Positions 32,784-44,059 of a stretch of 64,000 bases of DNA are shown here, piece after piece. Within the stretch, counting starts at the first letter, position 1; each line of letters begins with the position of its first letter. The notes under the pieces were generated by a model. It ran no database searches, was not told the origin of the DNA, and was given only the letters and a program-made list of their open reading frames with translations. The stretch comes from Escherichia coli (GTDB lineage Bacteria; Pseudomonadota; Gammaproteobacteria; Enterobacterales; Enterobacteriaceae): NCBI RefSeq assembly GCF_030384885.1, contig NZ_CP128613.1, one strand, 5' to 3'. The position numbers were made by a program, and so were the translations under genes.

Positions 32784-32864
32784 GTAAAAATTATATTTCA
32801 GGACAAGAAGTTATGCTCGAGTCAAGCTAATGAATTGCTTAACGCAAGGAATAAAAACGTATTG

Positions 32865-34346
32865 ATGAACACTGGGAATTTCGAGTCGATACAAATCATG
32901 ATCGCCGCGCAAGAGTGGCGTAGCCTGCCGCTGCATCTGCGTTTGTATCAGGCTTTTCGTCAGTTGGTGATTTCTGGCGCGTTGTCTGATGGCGCAAAAC
33001 TGCCGTCCGCTCGCGCACTGGCCCAGCAACTGCACCTTTCCAGAGATACCATCGAAAATGCCTATTCCCAGCTCCACCGCGACGGTTTTATGGCTCGCAG
33101 GCAGGGGGCCGGGAGTTTCGCCAGCCGCCAGGGGATACCGCATATTCAGGGCCAGCATGCGCAACCACCCTCGCCCGGACAAGTACCGGCTTTAAGCGCT
33201 CGCTGGCAGCCAATTGCCGATCGCGCAGTCTCTTTCGATGCCCGCCAGATGCAGACCTTTACGCTTGGCCTGCCGGAAACGCGAAACTTCCCGCTAAACA
33301 TTTGGCAGAACTTTTCCCGCCAGATCCAACGTGAGCAGGCGCATACGCTGATGTTAAATAGCGATCCGCAGGGCGAGCCACAGCTGCGCCAGCAAATTGC
33401 GCATTACCTTAATTTTGAACGCGGCGCGAAGGTAGATGCCGGGCAGATTGTGATTGTCAGCGGCGCACGGCAGGCGTTCTGGCTGTGCGGGCAACTGCTG
33501 GCAGAGGCCGGACAGTCGGTGGCGATGGAAAATCCGGGCTATCCCGGCGCGCGTCAGGCGTTTTCTGCCGCACAGCTTAATCTTCTTCCCGTTGAAGTGG
33601 ATGACGCCGGGATCCGGGTGGATAAACTGCCGCCCGCGCCGCTGGTTTACGTCACGCCCTCGCACCAGTTTCCTTCCGGTCATTTGCTCACGCTGGCGCG
33701 GCGTCATGCCCTGATTGCCTGGGCGCAGGCGCACAATGCATGGATTATCGAAGACGACTACGACAGCGAATTTCACTACACCAGCGCGCCCGTCGCCTGT
33801 CTGCAAGGGTTAGACTGCGAGCAACGCACCCTGTATGTCGGCACTTTCAGCAAAACGCTCTATCCCGGCCTGCGCATCGGTTATCTGGTGGTGCCGACGT
33901 CGCTGGCTGCGCACTTTGCCGCCGCGCGTAATTTGCTTGATGGCGCAACGCCTGCGTTATCCCAACTAACGCTGGCGCGATTTATCGAGTCCGGTCATTT
34001 TGCCGCCCATATTCGCAACATGCGCAGTATGTACGCAGTGCGACAGGCGAGCCTGGCAGAGGCTATTCATCAACACTTAAGTGAATGGGTCACGCCAGTG
34101 GTGACATCCGGTGGGTTACAAATGCCCTGCTGGCTGCATGAAGGTATTGATGAGCAACAGACGCTAAATGCCGCGCGCCGCGCCGGGTTAAACATCGCCG
34201 GAATGCGCCAGTTCTGGCTGACGCACCCCGCGCCCGCGGGCTGGCTGCTGGGATTTGCCGCCTTTACCCCCTACGAGATTGAACAGGGCGTCAAGCGTCT
34301 GCGGGCTGCATTATGCACTGAAAACGTGCGCCCAGCCGGGTCATAA
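32865..34346 (+). CDS. MocR/GntR-family regulator with fused PLP aminotransferase-like domain
   Basis: N-terminal GntR HTH (…LPSARALAQQLHLSRDTIENAYSQLHRDGFMARRQGAGSFAS…) and large C-terminal fold-type-I-like domain; start ambiguous (TTG 32835, ATG 32865 or 32898). Confidence 0.8.
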   Translation: MNTGNFESIQIMIAAQEWRSLPLHLRLYQAFRQLVISGALSDGAKLPSARALAQQLHLSRDTIENAYSQLHRDGFMARRQGAGSFASRQGIPHIQGQHAQPPSPGQVPALSARWQPIADRAVSFDARQMQTFTLGLPETRNFPLNIWQNFSRQIQREQAHTLMLNSDPQGEPQLRQQIAHYLNFERGAKVDAGQIVIVSGARQAFWLCGQLLAEAGQSVAMENPGYPGARQAFSAAQLNLLPVEVDDAGIRVDKLPPAPLVYVTPSHQFPSGHLLTLARRHALIAWAQAHNAWIIEDDYDSEFHYTSAPVACLQGLDCEQRTLYVGTFSKTLYPGLRIGYLVVPTSLAAHFAAARNLLDGATPALSQLTLARFIESGHFAAHIRNMRSMYAVRQASLAEAIHQHLSEWVTPVVTSGGLQMPCWLHEGIDEQQTLNAARRAGLNIAGMRQFWLTHPAPAGWLLGFAAFTPYEIEQGVKRLRAALCTENVRPAGS

Positions 34347-35397
34347 TCTCATACGGGATGGTGTTGCAGGCAGCGGCAACCTGTTCCAGCGTCTGGCCTG
34401 CGCCAATAAATTCCACCTTATCGCCCGCTGTCGGCGTGACGGCGCTGGCATCGACCATAAAGCTGTCCATACAAACCCGCCCCAATACCGGTAACCGCAC
34501 GCCGCGCCAGCATACGCCCGCCGGAGGACGCATATTTCGCGGAACGCCATCCGCGTAACCCGCGGATATCGTAGCGATACGCAGCGGACGCGTGGCGGTA
34601 ATCGTACTGCCATAGCCAACTGGCGTTCCCGCCGGGACATCCTGCACGCGCAGAATAGTTAGCGTCAGCGTAAAAGCCGGTTTTAGCGGCCTGGAAAACC
34701 ACGGCTGGGCGACGCCAAACAGCGCAATCCCCGGACGGCAGAGATCTTCCCGCCAACCTGGTTGCAAAAACATTCCGCAGGAGTTCGCCAGCGAAAATCG
34801 GCTGCTGGGGAAAACCGTTTTTGCCTGCTGGAATAGCGCGTGTTGCGCCACATTTAACGCATGATCCGGCCTGTCGGCGTTCGCCAGATGGCTGATGATA
34901 TAGTCCGGCGCAGGCCAGTTACGCTCACGAAATATCGCCGCCAGACGCATCAGTTGTTGCGGCATCACGCCCAGCCGCGACATACCGGAATCGAGCTGGA
35001 TCATCACCGCACGCCGCTGCTGGCGCGTTTCCAGTAACGTAAGCCACGCCATCACCTGGTCAATGGAATTGAGCAATGGCGTGATCTGCTGCGCGTAACA
35101 ATACGCCATCGCCTCCGGCATAACCCCATTAAGCACTACCACCATCGCATCAGTGGGCAGGATTTTACGCAGCGCCACGCCCTCCGAAAGCTGTGCCACA
35201 AAAAAGATCCGGCAGTTCGCCGCATACAGGGCGGGCGCAATCGCCTCCGCCCCCAGACCATAGGCATTGGCTTTCAACACCGCGCCACATTGCGCAGGGG
35301 CAACATGGCGCGCCAGCGTGCGATAATTATCGACGATGGCGGCGAGATTGACGCACATAACGCCGCACGCCGCCTGGATTTCAGTAGAAGTCATCAT
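34291..35397 (-). CDS. Alanine racemase-family PLP enzyme (fold type III)
   Basis: PLP-lysine motif AVLKANAYGLGA and C-terminal GRVCMDSFMVD motif; start ATG overlaps the stop of the upstream SHMT-like gene (ATGA). Confidence 0.85.
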   Translation of the reverse strand: MMTSTEIQAACGVMCVNLAAIVDNYRTLARHVAPAQCGAVLKANAYGLGAEAIAPALYAANCRIFFVAQLSEGVALRKILPTDAMVVVLNGVMPEAMAYCYAQQITPLLNSIDQVMAWLTLLETRQQRRAVMIQLDSGMSRLGVMPQQLMRLAAIFRERNWPAPDYIISHLANADRPDHALNVAQHALFQQAKTVFPSSRFSLANSCGMFLQPGWREDLCRPGIALFGVAQPWFSRPLKPAFTLTLTILRVQDVPAGTPVGYGSTITATRPLRIATISAGYADGVPRNMRPPAGVCWRGVRLPVLGRVCMDSFMVDASAVTPTAGDKVEFIGAGQTLEQVAAACNTIPYEIMTRLGARFQCIMQPADA

Positions 35398-36632
35398 TGA
35401 TAAGACAACGGGTAGCGGTTGGTTAGTTGTATTACTTTTTGCTCAATATCGGCGCAAATGCCTGCGATATCTGACGAGTTGATGGCGAAAATGATTTCAC
35501 TTATCCAGTCAGCAATAAGCACAAAATCATCCGCCTTCATCCCACGCGTGGTGCAGGCCGCGCTGCCAATACGGACCCCGGAGGTAATCGACGGCGGCTG
35601 CGGATCGCCCGGCAGGGTGTTTTTATTGACCGTGATCCCCGCCAGTTCGAGAAAGTACTCCACCTGTGCGCCGGTTAACCCCTGCGGGCGCAGGTCGATA
35701 ATCCCCAGATGGCAGTCGGTGCCGCCCGTTAACAGCGTCAGACCGCGCTGCGCCAGTTGCTGGCACATCGCCTGCGCATTGTCGATAACCTACCCGGCGT
35801 AACGTTTAAATTCTGGTTGTAATGCCTCGCCAAGCGCCACCGCTTTCGCCGCGATAACGTGCATCAACGGCCCGCCCTGCAAACCGGGAAAGATGGCGCT
35901 GTCGATTTTTTTCGCAAGCCTGGCGTCATTGGTGAGGATCATGCCGCCGCGCGGCCCGCGCAACGTTTTATGCGTGGTGGTGGTGACCACATCAGCATAC
36001 GCCAGCGGCGAAGGAAAACAGCCGCCCGCCACCAGCCCGGCAAAGTGCGCCATATCCACCAGCAAAATGGCATCAACGGCATCGGCAATGCGGCGAAAAC
36101 GGGCAAAATCATAGTGGCGTGGATAAGCCGATCCTCCGGCAATAATTAACCGTGGGCGCTCGCGTAGCGCGATCATCTCGACCTCATCCATATCAATCAG
36201 GCCACTATGGGCATCGACGCCATAGTGAAAGGCGTTAAACCATTTGCCGGATTGATTGACCGGAGAACCGTGCGTGAGATGCCCGCCGCATTGCAGGCTC
36301 ATGCCAAGAATTTTGTCGCCGGGCTTCAGCAACGCCAGATAGACCGCCTGATTCGCCTGGCTGCCGGAGTGAGGCTGCACATTGACGTAACGCGCGCCAA
36401 AGAGCTGCTGCGCGCGGGTTATCGCCAGCATCTCAACCTCATCAATAAACTTACAGCCGCCGTAATAGCGATGCTGGTAATAACCTTCGGCGTATTTATT
36501 GGTTAACACCGACCCCTGCGCCGCGAGAACGGCGGGGCTTACGAAATTCTCCGAGGCAATCAGTTCCAGCGACTGCTGCTGGCGCTGTTGCTCCTGGTTA
36601 ATCAATGCAAAAAGTGGATCGTTATTTATCAT
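35394..36632 (-). pseudogene. Serine hydroxymethyltransferase (GlyA)-like gene interrupted by an in-frame TAG at 35790-35792
   Basis: N-terminal ORF (…[31 protein letters not shown]…[14 protein letters not shown]…PEFKRYAG*) and C-terminal ORF (VIDNAQAM…TSGVRIGSAA…) are in the same frame, separated only by TAG where GlyA has Gln. Confidence 0.75.
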
Positions 36633-36864
36633 GCGCTTCCCCCGCAAATTCATCATGCGATGATTTTCGCAGGGAAAACCTCGTCCGCACCCTGCCACTT
36701 TTTAGACTGAGCGCAGACCACCTATGTCGTTTTACTTAAAAGAAGAGGGAAGAAGGCTCCAGGCATCTCCATATGCGATTCTGGTTGGTAATACATCATA
36801 TTCCAGCTGCTCTTATCCGCCTACGTTATTGCATATACGGATAAGGCAGCCTCAATACGTACTT

Positions 36865-38430
36865 TTACTTGATATCTTTCACGCGCATACCGTTGATCTG
36901 TTCATCCGTGATGGTATTACCCGCTTTAAAGTAATCAACCACCGCGTGATAAACGTAATAACCGCCCGTCGTATTGCGCGCTTTACCCTCGGTAAACGCG
37001 GTAAAACCATCTCCACCATCAGCAAGGAAACTCTGAGTGGCAATGTGGTAAACCGTCGCATCTTCAATCGGTTCGCCATTCAGAGTCAGCGAGATAACCC
37101 GCTGACCAACCGGCTTGCTGCTGTCGTACTTCATTTCCAGGCCTTTCGATACCTGTAAAACGCCATTACTTAAACTTGCGCCGTGTTCCATCAAACTGCG
37201 TAATTGTTTACCCGTGAGTTCCATCGTCACCAGTTCGTTGGGGAACGGGAAGGTACTGATGACGCCACCCATCGTAATTGCACCCGCCGGGATCTCATTG
37301 CGGATACCGCCAGAGTTGGTTAACGCCAACTGGGTATTTTTACCCGCCGCTGCCAGCAAAGCGTCCGCCGCCAGATTCCCGAGAGAAGCCGATTCACCAT
37401 AGGCACGTTTCAATTCAACTGGCGATTGCGCCACCGTTTGCTGCACGACTTCATCCAGCTTTTTATTCCAACTATCAATCACCTGTTTTGTTTGCGGATC
37501 GGGCTTCCACTCGTCGGCGTAAAGGGTTTTAAGCTCGAAGTTTTTCACCGTAAAAGTGTGCGGCTTCTCTTTGTAGTCTAGAACCAGTTTACCCACATCA
37601 ATCCCGCCGCTGTCAGTGGAGAGGATTAACGTATTGCCGACTTTAATCGGTTCCGGCGTACCCACATGTGCATGCCCGGTGATCAAAATATCCAGCCCTT
37701 TCACCTGACTTGCCGTCTGAATATCTTTATCCAGTGCGCGGCGCACATCTGTGCCCCCCATACTGGACTGGCGGGCCGGAACACCTTCGTGAATCAGCGC
37801 AACGGTCAAATCAACCTTGCCTTTGAGTTCATCGATATAACGTTGTAGCCATTTAATTTCATCACGCGCCTCAATACCCACTCGCGTTGCCGCAGATACC
37901 GTATCATTAAAGGCAAATACACCGTGCAAACCAATCACGCCAATTTTCACGCCGTCTTTTTCAATGATGGTATAGGGCTTATCCCAGAATGATTTACTGC
38001 TGTTCTGATAAAAAACATTACCCTGCACAATCGGGAATTTTGCCTGACTCAACTGTAATAACGTATTGTCCCAGCCGTGATCAAATTCATGATTACCTAT
38101 AGTGGCCGCATCGAACGGCATGGTATTCATAATATCGATAATCGCCTTGCCTTTAGTCAGGCTGCTAATATACGGCCCGGTAAAATAGTCACCCGCATCA
38201 AAAAACCAGGTCGCTTTGTTTTTAGCTTTTTCTTGTTTAACAAGCGTAGTGATATTTGCCCAGCCGCCAATATCTCGTTTACCGTCAGCAATCCACGGCA
38301 CTTTATAAGGCTCTACATGTGCATGGAGGTCGTTGGTATAAATGATGGTGACATCTTTGGCGCAAGCCCAAAACGGCAGTGTTAATGCGATACCCGCAGC
38401 AAGCATTTTAATTTTCATAAACAATCCCAT
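36865..38430 (-). CDS. UshA/CpdB-family periplasmic nucleotidase (paralog A)
   Basis: Signal peptide [20 protein letters not shown]; metallophosphatase motifs [26 protein letters not shown]; C-terminal 5'-nucleotidase-type domain (…[13 protein letters not shown]…). Confidence 0.85.
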
Positions 38431-38550
38431 CCAGTGAGATAAAGGATTGCTACATTACGTTCTGAAAGGCTTTTTTATGTGAGAATACTCACATCCAGAG
38501 GCGATAACTGTAGGACAAAATCAACGACCTTATGAAATCGTTGGTGATAT

Positions 38551-39678
38551 ATGTCAAATCTGTTTGCGATTAATGTCTGTAAAACGTTCGGTTGTCGAAA
38601 TTTGGGATTGGCCTCATCGGAAGATTACAGTTGGCCAGACTATAAACTGGGTTTTCCGGCACTGCACTGCCAGGCATGCGGAAGTTACCCCCCTTTGTTT
38701 GATGAACAACAATTTCGTGACTGGTTGTCAGTTCACATGACTGCGTGTGCCATAGAAACAGGGCATTTTTGTCCATCATGCTATTGTAAAGAAAAGATTT
38801 TTTATGGCCACAACCCGCAGGGAACACAACGCGTTCAATGCCGTTCATGCAAAAAAGTCTGGACTCCGAAACAGCAGCCAGCAAGAGAAATTACGTATCC
38901 CCAGTCCATTGAAACCGTTCAACTGTTCATGCCCTTTCAAGGAGCCAGCGCAGTACAAAAGCTCTATGTTTTAGTCAGTCTTGACGCCACTCGTGGCAAC
39001 ATCCTTCATCTCTCCACGAATTATACGCAACATCAGACAGGAGACAGTCTGCGGTACAGTTACAGAGGCAATACAGAACCAACTGAGCACCATAGCGATA
39101 TTGCGCAGAGGGTAGATATGCGTGAAGCACAATTCTTGCGCCGGAGCCAGTTCGATGAAATTCAGTATGGCAGTGCTGTGCTCAAGCGCAACGGCAAGGG
39201 AGCCATACTACGCCCGGTTATCACGGCACACGGGCATTTCAGAATACTGAAAATCCGCTTTCCACATGTCAAAACGCATATCATTTCACACGAATGTTTT
39301 CTGAGAGGCGCAATTATTACAGCCTGGGCAGATCAGTTCCGCCAACAACAAGGCGAACTTTGGTTCGTAGAGGAAGAAATCAGCGACCGTAATGCTGATA
39401 TTCCCTGGCATTTTCAGGGAACGACATACCATGGTTGGTGGCAAAATCAGTGGCAACGCTGGGGGCAGGGGAATAACAGCAAGATGGTCTGCCTGCTCAC
39501 AGGAGTCTCCTTAGAAAGGGGCGCAAATGTTTCTCTGGCAACCAGTCGTTGCTTTATCACATGGCTGACAGACCAACACGACTTTACCCAAAGCGCGTTA
39601 TTATCCGCAGGTCGCGTAACGAAAATGCTGACCTCACTGGCGTTAAAATACAATGAATCGCTCACTCCATCTTGTTAG
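38551..39678 (+). CDS. Hypothetical cysteine-rich protein with N-terminal zinc-ribbon motifs (transposase-like zinc ribbon?)
   Basis: 375 aa; C-x4-C, C-x2-C, C-x2-C…C-x2-C spacing including FYGHNPQGTQRVQCRSCKKVW, resembling IS1 InsA / IS1595-type ribbons; remainder unassigned. Confidence 0.6.
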   Translation: MSNLFAINVCKTFGCRNLGLASSEDYSWPDYKLGFPALHCQACGSYPPLFDEQQFRDWLSVHMTACAIETGHFCPSCYCKEKIFYGHNPQGTQRVQCRSCKKVWTPKQQPAREITYPQSIETVQLFMPFQGASAVQKLYVLVSLDATRGNILHLSTNYTQHQTGDSLRYSYRGNTEPTEHHSDIAQRVDMREAQFLRRSQFDEIQYGSAVLKRNGKGAILRPVITAHGHFRILKIRFPHVKTHIISHECFLRGAIITAWADQFRQQQGELWFVEEEISDRNADIPWHFQGTTYHGWWQNQWQRWGQGNNSKMVCLLTGVSLERGANVSLATSRCFITWLTDQHDFTQSALLSAGRVTKMLTSLALKYNESLTPSC

Positions 39679-39907
39679 TCAATACACTCGACAAACGACC
39701 ATAAATTAATGGGATCACTATTTCTCATTTAATTAAATATATGAATGTATGACTGAAAAATATAATCACAGTCAATGTTTAATTAATAACATTATTTGTT
39801 ACTAAGATCACATAATACTTTCCTGACCTATGTTTACATAAAAATAAGACACGGTGTTCCTTTTATTTAAATAATTCAACCAATGTAACAACCCCTATCA
39901 AGGAGGG

Positions 39908-41461
39908 ATGATGAGAACTGTATTTACGACTTTATCAGTCATATTCAGCGTGATGTTTTCTCACAGTATACTAGCTCAGGACGTTACTATTTATTATACG
40001 AATGATATTCACGCACATGTCAATCCGGCAAAAATTCCCGCTGTTGATAAGAACAGACTTGTAGGTGGTATGGCTAATATTGCAGGCATCGTTAATGAAG
40101 CGAAGAAAAAAAACAAAGATGTCTTTTTCTTTGATGCAGGCGACTATTTTACCGGTCCGTATATCAGTACCCTGACCAAAGGTGAAGCTATTATTGATAT
40201 CATGAACACCATGCCCTTTGATGCGGTGTCCGTTGGTAATCACGAGTTCGATCACGGCGTGCCCAATATGGTATCTCAGTTATCAAAAGCAAAATTCCCC
40301 ATTCTGCTGGGAAATATTTACTACACCGATACAAATAAACCAGTTTGGGATCATCCGTGGACCATTATCGAAAAAGATGGTTTAAAGATTGGTGTGATTG
40401 GATTGCATGGTGCATTCGCTTTCTATGATACAGTCGCGGCAAAAGCACGTGAAGGCGTAGAAGCCAGAGACGAAATTAAATATTTAAATAAAGCACTTGC
40501 AGAATTAAAAGGTAAAGTCGACATTACCGTTTTGCTAATTCACGAAGGTGTTCCGGCGCGTCAATCAAGCTTTGGTAGTAAAGATGTGGAGCGGCTACTA
40601 CAGGCAGATATTGAGACAGCTAAAAAAGTGAATGGTGTTGATGTCTTAATTACCGGTCACGCACATGTCGGAACACCGCAACCAATAAAAGTTAATAACA
40701 CATTAATTGTATCTACCGATGCATACGGCACCGACATCGGAAAACTTGTGCTTGATTACAATCCGAAAACAAAGAAAATTGATAGTTATAATGGTGAGTT
40801 AATCACCATCTTTGCAGATCAATTTAAACCTGACACCATCGTTCAAAATACTATCGATAAATGGAGCATAAAGCTTAACAAAATAACACAGGAAGTTGTC
40901 GGCCATTCTCCCGTAGTTTTAACACGTGAGTATGGCAGTTCTTCTTCTACCGGTAACCTTATTCTAGATGCAATGATGGAAAAAACACCTGATGCCATTG
41001 CCGGATTTCAAAATAGCGGTGGGATGCGAGCTGATTTTCCTAAAGGTGATATCACACTGGGAGATGTTATTAGCACATTCCCCTTTAATAATGACCTCAT
41101 CGAGATGGATTTGACGGGCCGCGATCTCAAATCATTGATGACGCATGCAACCAATCTAACTAACGGTGTGTTACAGGTTTCAAAAAGCGTTGCGGTTGTC
41201 TATGACAGCAAAAAACCACTCAACCAACGGTTAATCTCTTTCACCATTAACGGCAAACCCGTGGAAGATAATCAAACATATCGTATTGCCACGCACTCCT
41301 TTTGTGCCAGTGGTGGTGACGGTTTTGAAGCATTTTTGAATGGAAAAAATGTGAAGACGATACCGGGAACAACCTCGGCGGAATCTATCATCGATTATTT
41401 CAAAAATCATAAACCTGTCACCCCAGACTTAACTAAACGAGTCATGGACGTCGCCAAATAA
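39908..41461 (+). CDS. UshA/CpdB-family periplasmic nucleotidase (paralog B, most divergent)
   Basis: Signal peptide, same metallophosphatase motif set ([26 protein letters not shown]); AGGAGG RBS at 39901. Confidence 0.85.
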   Translation: MMRTVFTTLSVIFSVMFSHSILAQDVTIYYTNDIHAHVNPAKIPAVDKNRLVGGMANIAGIVNEAKKKNKDVFFFDAGDYFTGPYISTLTKGEAIIDIMNTMPFDAVSVGNHEFDHGVPNMVSQLSKAKFPILLGNIYYTDTNKPVWDHPWTIIEKDGLKIGVIGLHGAFAFYDTVAAKAREGVEARDEIKYLNKALAELKGKVDITVLLIHEGVPARQSSFGSKDVERLLQADIETAKKVNGVDVLITGHAHVGTPQPIKVNNTLIVSTDAYGTDIGKLVLDYNPKTKKIDSYNGELITIFADQFKPDTIVQNTIDKWSIKLNKITQEVVGHSPVVLTREYGSSSSTGNLILDAMMEKTPDAIAGFQNSGGMRADFPKGDITLGDVISTFPFNNDLIEMDLTGRDLKSLMTHATNLTNGVLQVSKSVAVVYDSKKPLNQRLISFTINGKPVEDNQTYRIATHSFCASGGDGFEAFLNGKNVKTIPGTTSAESIIDYFKNHKPVTPDLTKRVMDVAK

Positions 41462-41495
41462 AATATCATTTATCAGTCTATTTATTTAACAAGGA

Positions 41496-43121
41496 ATGCG
41501 AATGAAAACAGTGCAGCGTACTTTACTTGCCGCAACATTGCTGACTATTTTTTCGGTCTCGGTCATGGCGCAGGATGTCACGATTATTTATACAAATGAT
41601 CTTCACGCTCATGTGGATTCTTATAAAGTGCCGTATATCGCAGACGGAAAACGCGACATTGGCGGCTTTGCCAATATATCTACTTTAGTAAAACAAGAGA
41701 AAGCGAAAAATAAAGCCACCTTTTATTTTGATGCTGGAGACTATTTCACCGGCCCTTATATCAGCAGTCTGACAAAGGGCGAAGCAATAATTGACATTAT
41801 GAATACCATGCCTTTTGACGCAGTATCAATCGGTAATCATGAGTTTGACCATGGCTGGGATAATGCCCTGCGACAATTAAGCAAAGCGAATTTTCCTGTT
41901 TTATTGGGCAATGTTTATCATAAAGAGAGTGAAAAACCCTTCTGGAACAAGCCCTACACCATCCTGGAAAAAGATGGCATCAAGATTGGTATTATTGGGC
42001 TACACGGCGTATTTGCATTTAATGATACGGTCTCGGAGCTCTCTCTCCAGGGACTCGATAATGACAATAATAACCGCTTTGATAAATCTTCCGAGACCCT
42101 TAAGAATCAGGGGATTGAAGCACGTGATGAAGTGAAGTATTTGCAGCATTATATCGACGAGTTACGTGATAAGGTTGACCTCACTGTGGCGCTGGTTCAT
42201 GAAGGCGTTCCGGCGCGTCAGTCCAGCATTGGCAATACAGATGTTAGACGCGCTCTTGATAAAGATATTCAAACCGCTAGCAAGGTGAAAGGATTGGATA
42301 TTCTGATTACCGGGCATGCCCACGTCGGAACGCCAGAACCAATCAAAGTCGGCAACACCTTAATCCTTTCGACTGATAGTGGCGGTATCGATATTGGTAA
42401 ATTAGTCCTTGATGTCAACCCTACAGCTCGTACCCATAAAATGAAGAGCTTTGAGCTGAAAACAGTTTATGCCGATGAATGGATACCCGATCCAACGACA
42501 CAAAAAGTTATCAATGGCTGGAATAAAAAACTGGCGGATATTGTACGCCAACCAGTGGGTGAATCATCGATTGCATTAACTCGCGCCTATGGTGAGTCAT
42601 CGCAACTAGGCAACCTGTTTACCGATGCAATGCTTGTCGCTGCTCCGACTGCACAGATTGCATTGATAAACTCCGGCAGCTTACGTGCGGATATAAATGC
42701 AGGCACGATTACCTTTGGCGACATTACCAGTACATTCCCCTTCAAGAATGAACTTACTGAAATGGATCTCAGCGGTAAGGATCTGCGTAACCTACTGGAA
42801 CACGGGGCATCGCTTACCAATGGCATCCTGCAAATGTCAAAAGGCGCAGAAATGCGCTATACCCCGCAGAAACCAGTAGGTCAGCGCATAGTATCTTTTA
42901 AAATTAATGGTGAAGAGATCGTTGATACGAATATTTACCATGTTGCAACAACGACTTTCCTTGCACTGGGGGGCGATGGTTTTCTGGCATTCAAAGAAGG
43001 GAAAAATGTTCAGGTCCGCGCCGGAAAAAACATGTCCGATGTCGTGATCGATTATTTGAAGAAAGGCCACAAGATTACGCCTGCACAGGTAAATGAAATG
43101 CGGGTGGACGTTAGCAAATAA
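41496..43121 (+). CDS. UshA/CpdB-family periplasmic nucleotidase (paralog C, with ~27 aa Asn/Asp-rich insert)
   Basis: Signal peptide; same motif set; insert ELSLQGLDNDNNNRFDKSSETLKNQG absent from paralogs A and B; real start probably ATG 41502. Confidence 0.85.
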   Translation: MRMKTVQRTLLAATLLTIFSVSVMAQDVTIIYTNDLHAHVDSYKVPYIADGKRDIGGFANISTLVKQEKAKNKATFYFDAGDYFTGPYISSLTKGEAIIDIMNTMPFDAVSIGNHEFDHGWDNALRQLSKANFPVLLGNVYHKESEKPFWNKPYTILEKDGIKIGIIGLHGVFAFNDTVSELSLQGLDNDNNNRFDKSSETLKNQGIEARDEVKYLQHYIDELRDKVDLTVALVHEGVPARQSSIGNTDVRRALDKDIQTASKVKGLDILITGHAHVGTPEPIKVGNTLILSTDSGGIDIGKLVLDVNPTARTHKMKSFELKTVYADEWIPDPTTQKVINGWNKKLADIVRQPVGESSIALTRAYGESSQLGNLFTDAMLVAAPTAQIALINSGSLRADINAGTITFGDITSTFPFKNELTEMDLSGKDLRNLLEHGASLTNGILQMSKGAEMRYTPQKPVGQRIVSFKINGEEIVDTNIYHVATTTFLALGGDGFLAFKEGKNVQVRAGKNMSDVVIDYLKKGHKITPAQVNEMRVDVSK

Positions 43122-43133
43122 TAAAAAAATTAT

Positions 43134-43165
43134 AATGCCATTCATTCACTGAATGGCATTATTTT
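43134..43165 (+). terminator. Terminator-like hairpin after nucleotidase paralog C
   Basis: atgccattca-ttcac-tgaatggcat followed by T-rich tract. Confidence 0.5.
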
Positions 43166-43198
43166 CTCTAAATCAACAATAGATAATGAGATATATTT

Positions 43199-44059
43199 AT
43201 GTGTATAAAAAAGCACGGGATAGCTTTATCGATTCTATTAATACCTTGCATTGGAAACGCTCAGAAAATTAAAAGTGAGGAAGGCTGGTTACATCAAAGC
43301 TTGAATGTCATTGGTCGCACAGACTCTCGCTTTGGCCCAAGGCTGACTAACGACCTCTACCCTGAATATACTGTAGCAGGAAGAAAAGACTGGTTTGATT
43401 TTTATGGTTATGTTGATCTACCAAAATTCTTTGGCGTCGGCAGTCACTATGATGTTGGGATCTGGGATGAGGGCTCACCACTATTTACGGAAATAGAACC
43501 TCGGTTTTCCATTGACAAATTGACCGGATTAAATCTTGCGTTCGGCCCTTTTAAAGAATGGTTCATTGCAAACAACTATGTCTATGATATGGGTGACAAC
43601 CAGTCATCCCGGCAAAGTACATGGTATATGGGGCTTGGTACAGATATCGACACGGGTCTACCAATTAAGCTTTCTGCCAATATATACGCCAAGTATCAGT
43701 GGCAAAACTATGGTGCCGCTAATGAAAATGAATGGGACGGATATCGATTCAAAATAAAATATAGCATTCCTCTTACCCATTTATTCGGAGGGCGATTGGT
43801 ATACAATAGTTTTACTAACTTTGATTTTGGATCCGATCTTGCGGACAAATCACACAATAATAAACGAACCAGTAATGCTATTGCTTCAAGCCATATCCTT
43901 TCCCTGCTATATGAACACTGGAAATTTGCATTTACACTACGTTATTTTCACAACGGTGGACAATGGAATGCTGGGGAGAAAGTTAACTTCGGAGATGGTC
44001 CATTTGAATTAAAAAACACAGGATGGGGAACCTATACTACTATTGGTTATCAATTTTAA
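43199..44059 (+). CDS. Tsx-family nucleoside-specific outer-membrane channel paralog
   Basis: Signal peptide, C-terminal Phe; long colinear blocks matching Tsx as recalled (…KDWFDFYGY…[12 protein letters not shown]…[14 protein letters not shown]…[26 protein letters not shown]…). Confidence 0.85.

Follow-up and report, generated by a model that had tools for sequence, protein, structure and literature searches.

The DNA stretch analysed in this study (64,000 nt, referred to as the window) matches the chromosome of Escherichia coli 2013C-4282 with 100% identity. It contains one continuous open reading frame (ORF) with an ATG start at positions 38551..39678 of the plus strand, which encodes a cysteine-rich protein of 375 amino acids and is designated ORF375 here. 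This reading frame had been pointed out in a first-pass annotation made from the letters alone, and it corresponds to a RefSeq coding sequence of strain 2013C-4282 (WP_074501000.1, 'cytoplasmic protein'). It belongs to a variable island flanked by metF and metL and is very probably a domesticated descendant of an IS1-type transposase. The genes of the locus and the region between the divergent pair are listed below.

36865..38418, minus strand: nucleotidase A, a UshA-type bifunctional metallophosphatase/5'-nucleotidase and the invariant partner of ORF375
38419..38550, no strand assigned: intergenic region, nucleotidase A to ORF375
38551..39678, plus strand: ORF375, very probably a single-copy domesticated IS1-type transposase derivative
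39911-41461, plus strand: nucleotidase B
41502-43121, plus strand: nucleotidase C
43199-44059, plus strand: Tsx-type nucleoside channel

ORF375 and nucleotidase A are divergently arranged around a 132-nt region; an alternative in-frame start at 38430 would make the nucleotidase A reading frame longer. On the 3' side of ORF375, a spacer of 229 nt with a guanine plus cytosine (GC) content of 27.9% precedes nucleotidase B. Both the divergent arrangement and the AT-rich spacer had been described correctly in the first pass. Nucleotidase B, nucleotidase C and the Tsx channel (39911..44059, plus strand) form an optional downstream module, which is missing from the minimal island found in ST131-type E. 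coli and Citrobacter freundii, where the nucleotidase and ORF375 are present alone.

The ORF375 family is small. An exhaustive profile search of 1.84 billion representatives yielded 137 relatives, found in Gammaproteobacteria only, and a diverse alignment of 55 members was drawn from these; all conservation counts given here refer to that alignment. Four parts of the protein can be distinguished.

38572..38694, plus strand: zinc ribbon 1, residues 8-48 (C10, C15, C40, C43)
38770..38862, plus strand: zinc ribbon 2, residues 74-104 (C74, C77, C97, C100), homologue of the InsA / IS1-IS1595 N-terminal ribbon
38905..39342, plus strand: RNase H-like (DDE transposase/integrase) core, residues 119-264
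39343..39675, plus strand: C-terminal four-stranded β-sheet (GWWxxxW motif) and helical bundle with a conserved YN end, residues 265-375

The four N-terminal cysteine pairs noticed in the first pass are located at residues 10/15, 40/43, 74/77 (with an additional cysteine at 79) and 97/100, and all eight paired cysteines are kept across the family (C74 in 46/55 members, each of the other seven in at least 51/55). Zinc ribbon 1, in which N8, K11, N17 and Y26 are invariant, is specific to this family and had no Pfam match. The segment FYGHNPQGTQRVQCRSCKKVW (residues 84-104), previously likened to the InsA ribbon, lies within zinc ribbon 2. For ORF375 taken alone, this likeness stays below threshold: Pfam Zn_ribbon_InsA gave an independent E-value (i-E) of 0.043, and the NCBIfam IS1 model NF033558 matched the ribbon region only, with an E-value of 4e-4 (domain E 0.026) and 20 bits against a cut-off of 100. 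For the family it holds. Zn_ribbon_InsA matches seven of the 55 members at E<=1e-3 (best 1.4e-7), several members exceed the IS1_IS1595_Zn cut-off, and the comparison of the family with IS1 InsAB' by hhalign gave a probability of 97% (E 1e-10). An InsAB'-seeded protein search returned only near-identical IS1 copies, which gave no basis for a diverse IS1 profile. C2H2 zinc-finger matches from a sequence search of solved structures were discarded on account of the cysteine-biased composition.

The hhalign alignment spans the second ribbon along with a helix-turn-helix (HTH), equivalent to InsA residues 4-88. In ORF375 and its enterobacterial orthologues the HTH is deleted: the alignment has a gap between residues 113 and 114, exactly where InsA residues ~45-88 align in the wider family, and residues 101-118 are coil only in the predicted model. 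All other subfamilies, with proteins of 400-570 amino acids, retain the InsA-type HTH. Its deletion in ORF375 had gone unnoticed in the first pass.

An AlphaFold model computed from the 55-member alignment reached a predicted local distance difference test (pLDDT) score of 94.6 and a predicted template modelling (pTM) score of 0.93, compared with a pLDDT of only 35 for a prediction from 16 close homologues. In the model, the core consists of β1 (119-129), β2 (136-145), β3 (151-156), α1 (184-197), β4 (218-220), α2 (222-236), β5 (242-246) and a helix starting at 249. This predicted order, β1-β2-β3-α1-β4-α2-β5-α, is that of the RNase H-like fold superfamily. Together, the InsA-type ribbon and the RNase H-like DDE fold make descent from an IS1-type transposase well supported.

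The catalytic positions were mapped by placing family conservation on the predicted secondary structure of the model. Strand β1 carries no conserved acid; at the position expected for the first aspartate (D1) is T122, a threonine or serine in 50/55 members. The position expected for the second (D2), after β4, is taken by R221-P222, with P222 kept in 50/55. E248, at the start of the helix following β5 and thus at the canonical glutamate position, is acidic in 54/55. Besides this residue, D145 at the end of β2 is acidic in 40/55 and D202 in the α1-β4 loop in 46/55, and conserved acids are confined to positions 145, 202/203, 246/248 and 299. The segment LYVLVSLDATRGN (residues 138-150), which the first-pass annotation had taken for the region of the first DDE aspartate, is predicted to form β2 and the turn to β3, with D145 ending the strand, and so was misplaced. 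Further conservation is found at R198 (55/55), H229 (54/55) and H247 (46/55), and a set of invariant histidine, arginine, tryptophan, asparagine and tyrosine residues persists beside E248. On the model, the first and second canonical carboxylates appear to be lost across the whole family, and canonical DDE chemistry with them.

Against this reading, when the core was compared with IS1 InsB by hhalign, no signal was obtained with the single sequence, with an eight-sequence profile or with the core alone. Pfam DDE domains, including PF03400, did not match any of the 55 members, so that the profile search suggested in the first pass recovered the zinc ribbon (in the seven members mentioned above) and no DDE domain. 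Because of the missing profile similarity to InsB and the missing Pfam DDE match, the link of the core to DDE transposases is a structural one. A further point against the reading is that the catalytic positions were assigned by predicted secondary structure and not by superposition, and that D202 and E248 could still form a metal site.

ORF375 is present in exactly one copy in each of 1841 out of 5426 complete E. coli genomes (about a third), among them Nissle 1917 and ST131 strains. No second copy was found in the window or in any of the 1841 carrier genomes, and no IS-type terminal inverted repeats flank the gene; for the window, the first pass had observed neither. The only inverted repeats around ORF375 were considered as ends of an insertion sequence (IS) and rejected, since both are CRP-type sites. 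The E. coli alleles fall into three classes (at least 99%, ~91% and ~77% nucleotide identity). In E. coli, C. freundii and Salmonella alike, the gene is found at the metF-metL position. Pairwise ratios of non-synonymous to synonymous substitution rates (dN/dS) range from 0.10 to 0.23, with synonymous sites saturated between lineages. Several PLSDB records seemed to place family genes on plasmids, but these proved to be chromosome fragments wrongly assigned, which contain katG-metF-metL or dnaK-dnaJ-nhaA.

An orthologous single copy, the lack of element ends, purifying selection and the loss of catalytic residues, all found here, are the marks of a domesticated transposase, and ORF375 is with high confidence a domesticated, catalytically dead derivative of the IS1 type. 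The first-pass annotation had offered a domesticated transposase-derived regulator or a decayed IS; the domesticated origin stands and the decayed IS is rejected, while the regulator is an inference, weighed below. Nor was a clear match to an active IS with intact ends obtained, given the 20 bits against 100 and the lack of repeats. A true IS1 with programmed frameshift is found in E. coli EC17CM2, inserted in nucleotidase B of the same island (locus L012, 4447-5144); there, a real IS1 and its domesticated relative occur side by side.

Nearly every family member examined adjoins a 5'-nucleotidase. The 5'-nucleotidase is adjacent in all enteric loci examined (E. coli, C. freundii, Enterobacter hormaechei and Salmonella); in E. 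hormaechei the same divergent nucleotidase-ORF pair is located at another chromosomal site. Relatives of 22-42% identity are found in a metagenome and in Proteus and Vibrionaceae/Psychromonas loci. Both the metagenomic relative and that of Proteus terrae are divergent from a nucleotidase. The genome scan for related loci covered the vibrio-type subfamily, with 23 loci from Vibrio, Photobacterium, Aliivibrio, Enterovibrio, Thaumasiovibrio and Psychromonas. In 21 of these, a signal-peptide-bearing 5'-nucleotidase precedes the family gene on the same strand and ends 20-98 nt upstream; of the other two, one is a truncated contig and one a partial match. The linkage of homologues to nucleotidase genes, raised in the first pass as a point to check, is therefore seen in all enteric loci, in Proteus and in 21/23 Vibrionaceae-type loci. 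The remaining members are located beside deo, nup or tsx genes, or beside genes for a Tsx-like channel and a sulfatase: one subfamily is divergent from deoB-deoD-nupG, one is sited between deoD-tal-deoB-nupC and tsx-add, one directly follows deoD and one follows a Tsx-like channel, a sulfatase and a sulfatase maturase. Among the cytoplasmic products of these loci, the family protein alone lacks an evident role in catalysis or transport.

ORF375 and the periplasmic UshA-type 5'-nucleotidase are an ancient gene pair. The linkage to nucleotide and nucleoside genes is conserved from Enterobacteriaceae to Vibrionaceae, and this gene order suggests that the family protein may control or assist these genes. 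A paralogous member (414-420 amino acids, ~24% identity, HTH kept) is encoded after a Tsx-like channel and a sulfatase (L039, 5004-6248; L008, 7001-8263); hence the family is not confined to nucleoside genes. The Atlantibacter sulfatase cluster also contains a radical-SAM maturase, and in some E. coli the Tsx-like channel/sulfatase cluster is located between mokC and nhaA. In public records, family members go by 'cytoplasmic protein' or 'hypothetical protein', or else bear the wrong name 'IS1 family transposase'; other labels are 'Transposase and inactivated derivatives' and even 'Lactate dehydrogenase'.

Five enterobacterial loci show 86% conservation in the stretch that separates nucleotidase A from ORF375, far more than at the synonymous sites in the ORF, which are saturated. 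The following elements were located in this region and in the spacer downstream of ORF375.

38450-38455 (plus-strand coordinates), minus strand: -10-like hexamer TAATGT, read from the sequence
38478..38493, no strand assigned: TGTGAgaatacTCACA, a perfect CRP-core palindrome of the divergent promoter region
38515-38520: -10-like hexamer CAAAAT, read from the sequence
39797..39812, no strand assigned: TGTTActaagaTCACA, a CRP-like site with one mismatch, located in the AT-rich spacer that precedes nucleotidase B

The palindrome at 38478..38493 is the only perfect TGTGA-N6-TCACA in the 64-kb window. The putative -10 hexamers are placed ~32 bp from the CRP centre on either side, a spacing consistent with a single CRP dimer acting at a pair of divergent class II promoters, as far as can be read from the sequence. 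The CRP sites were the only repeated motif shared by the two intergenic regions flanking ORF375, and the conserved intergenic blocks had no other copies in the window. A dyad, CAACGAcc-N5-aaaTCGTTG, is located at 38523-38544 just before the ORF375 Shine-Dalgarno sequence. Four of the five enteric loci have identical arms, and that of E. hormaechei carries one change without compensation; tested as an RNA hairpin, the dyad fell short of significance (z -0.75). It could represent promoter or 5' untranslated region (5'UTR) sequence, or an operator. In the ~300 nt upstream of the nucleotidase genes of the vibrio nucleotidase-ORF operons (loci L013-L035), most loci have a CRP-like site 75-97 nt before the nucleotidase start codon, and several add a LacI-family-type palindrome, GCAAACGTTTGC. 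These motifs suggest that the vibrio nucleotidase operons may be under CRP plus CytR/PurR-like control. Through the CRP-centred arrangement upstream of ORF375, the gene would be co-expressed with nucleotidase A, as in the vibrio operon.

We lean slightly towards the view that ORF375 is a host-kept IS1-type descendant acting as a locus-specific regulatory partner of nucleotide and nucleoside scavenging genes; that it acts as a transcriptional regulator has about an even chance. Among the roles considered, that of a regulator is the most likely, given that ORF375 has InsA-type ancestry for DNA binding, a position like that of a regulator and a linkage to one specific pathway. InsA itself is a repressor that binds DNA with the help of its zinc finger and HTH (PMC12428005). 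Where the arrangement is divergent, the family gene occupies the usual position of a regulator, and the conserved CRP site in the well-conserved intergenic region also speaks for a regulatory setting. In the proposed mechanism, a single CRP dimer at the central, perfectly conserved site would co-activate both divergent promoters, so that ORF375 and nucleotidase A would be produced jointly under carbon limitation. Binding nucleic acid through its zinc ribbons, to which its relatives would add the InsA-type HTH, ORF375 would in turn adjust how strongly the nucleotidase and Tsx genes are expressed. The remodelled former active site might serve in oligomerisation or as an effector pocket for nucleosides or nucleotides.

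Several points speak against a regulator. IS1 InsA needs both zinc finger and HTH for specific binding to the IS1 ends (PMC12428005), whereas the ORF375 subfamily has lost the HTH. The vibrio gene lies downstream in a nucleotidase operon whose promoter already has CRP-like and LacI-type sites, a layout that fits a co-expressed functional partner equally well as a regulator. Furthermore, no operator apart from the CRP site was found, and the conserved blocks are explicable as -10 element, 5'UTR and Shine-Dalgarno sequence.

For a further alternative, the odds are low. An IS1-type transposase would have been domesticated before the split of Vibrionales and Enterobacterales as a cytoplasmic partner dedicated to nucleotide-scavenging loci, other than a conventional HTH regulator: either its remodelled and catalytically dead RNase H-like pocket would sense nucleosides or nucleotides, with T122, R198, R221, H229, H247, E248 and R252 of the model as candidate residues, or the protein would be the cognate inhibitor, or a holding factor, of the adjacent UshA-type nucleotidase in the cytoplasm. 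That the enteric members could lose the HTH with everything else conserved would be explained by either role.

That ORF375 is such a dedicated cytoplasmic partner and no DNA-binding regulator at all, for instance a factor shielding cytoplasmic nucleotides from the nucleotidase before its export, is unlikely. According to a passage of PMC8475336 that summarises Glaser 1967 and Innes 2001, a cytoplasmic protein inhibits E. coli UshA and presumably keeps nucleotides safe until the enzyme is exported, which provides a precedent. The one-to-one pairing with a nucleotidase in all enteric loci and in 21/23 Vibrionaceae-type loci would suit this role, as would the co-transcription of the Vibrionaceae-type pairs (gaps of 20-98 nt) and the CRP-centred bidirectional promoter shared by the enteric pairs. 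The linkage and the other conserved motifs were also kept when the HTH was lost, and it is this loss, together with the co-expression, that keeps the explanation alive. However, other members have genes for cytoplasmic deo enzymes and transporters, or for a Tsx-like channel and sulfatase, as neighbours, with no nucleotidase within ~7 kb, and nucleotidase-linked members of vibrios and Proteus retain an InsA-type HTH, for which an inhibitor has no need. On these two grounds, inhibition of the nucleotidase is improbable as the function of the whole family. The island moreover holds three nucleotidase paralogues but one ORF of this kind, and K-12, in which the classical inhibitor was found, presumably lacks the island.

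A role of ORF375 as an RNase H-like salvage enzyme, with a non-canonical site (D202, E248, H229, H247) that acts on cytoplasmic nucleic acids or nucleotides, is quite improbable. The fold, the near-invariant acid E248 at its canonical position, the conserved H229, H247, D202 and R198 and zinc ribbons that could hold a nucleic-acid substrate would be compatible with this. A β1 carboxylate is, however, near-universal in RNase H-like nucleases, and here T122 is found on a β1 without conserved acid and R221-P222 follow β4. No match to any nuclease family was obtained in NCBIfam and Pfam scans of ORF375 or with Pfam across the 55 members.

An active or recently decayed IS1/IS1595-type IS, suggested by the IS1-type ribbon, the transposase fold and the 'IS1 family transposase' label of some relatives in public records, is effectively refuted by the single copy per genome without terminal repeats, the orthologous metF-metL site in E. 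coli, Citrobacter and Salmonella, a dN/dS of 0.1-0.2 with the ORF intact across lineages with saturated synonymous sites, the family-wide lack of D1 and D2, the 20 bits against a cut-off of 100 with the IS1 model and the presence of one ORF without an insA/insB frameshift.

The metF-metL site is polymorphic in E. coli, with three island forms, among which ORF375 alleles differ by up to ~23% in nucleotide sequence. In the ST131-type form, the 3' ends of ORF375 and metL overlap by 37 bp. The form of Nissle 1917 consists of nucleotidase, ORF375, two further nucleotidases and Tsx. The third, longer form is that of strain 2013C-4282, and an extra module to the left of nucleotidase A (window positions 32835-36698) is confined to it. 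This module encodes three products.

32835-34346, plus strand: MocR-type pyridoxal phosphate (PLP)-dependent regulator
34291-35397, minus strand: alanine racemase
35394-36698, minus strand: serine hydroxymethyltransferase pseudogene with an internal stop

The GC content of the MocR/racemase module is ~59%, compared with 40-48% in the nucleotidase genes. Beyond yiiX, 3' of metJ (NZ_CP027579.1, locus L001, 24427-31301), an ISAs1 transposase, a group II intron reverse transcriptase, an IS1 fragment and an RHS element are encoded, all unrelated to ORF375. The PADLOC defence models gave no match.

To our knowledge, it is only for a few DDE transposases that conversion into an ordinary bacterial host gene has been demonstrated, and full-text literature searches retrieved no paper on the ORF375 family or its accession numbers. 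The family is well delimited, its structural model is confident and its metabolic neighbourhood consistent, and the presence of ORF375 in a third of the complete E. coli genomes makes direct genetic testing feasible in common strains. If ORF375 regulates or chaperones periplasmic nucleotidases, it would be a new component of nucleotide and extracellular-DNA scavenging. If the assignment proposed here is true, IS counts in vibrio and enteric genomes would be corrected.

Among known systems, IS1 InsAB'/InsA is closest to ORF375 by descent. In comparison with IS1, ORF375 carries one more zinc ribbon at the N-terminus and is extended by ~110 residues at the C-terminus. The HTH is deleted, no acid is found at the first two catalytic positions, and the gene is a single copy without the insA/insB -1 frameshift and without terminal repeats. 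Out of five defining features of IS1, ORF375 shares the InsA-type four-cysteine ribbon (weak for the query, significant for the family) and lacks the other four, namely the HTH, the catalytic triad and score, the ends and copy number, and the frameshift. It is therefore not a member of IS1.

In E. coli, CytR and DeoR together with CRP regulate nucleoside catabolism and tsx. The niche of the ORF375 family is similar, with CRP-site promoters before nucleotidase, deo, nup and tsx genes. CytR and DeoR have a LacI/DeoR-family fold, unlike the zinc ribbons and RNase H-like core of ORF375, for which no operator was found. With the UshA inhibitor, ORF375 has in common that it is cytoplasmic and tied to a periplasmic UshA-type 5'-nucleotidase, in its case by gene linkage only.

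The plant proteins FHY3 and FAR1 are Mutator-derived transcription factors. In bacteria, TldR proteins are TnpB-derived RNA-guided transcription factors (bioRxiv 10.1101/2023.11.30.569447). The ancestor of ORF375 differs from both, being an IS1-type DDE transposase and not TnpB or a Mutator-like element (MULE) transposase, and no guide RNA is evident. Its pathway, nucleotide and nucleoside scavenging, is also a different one, and DNA binding and regulation are putative in its case. In all three, a mobile-element enzyme has been kept as a single-copy host gene, the fold and a nucleic-acid-binding module are retained, the catalytic residues are lost and the gene adjoins those it presumably serves.
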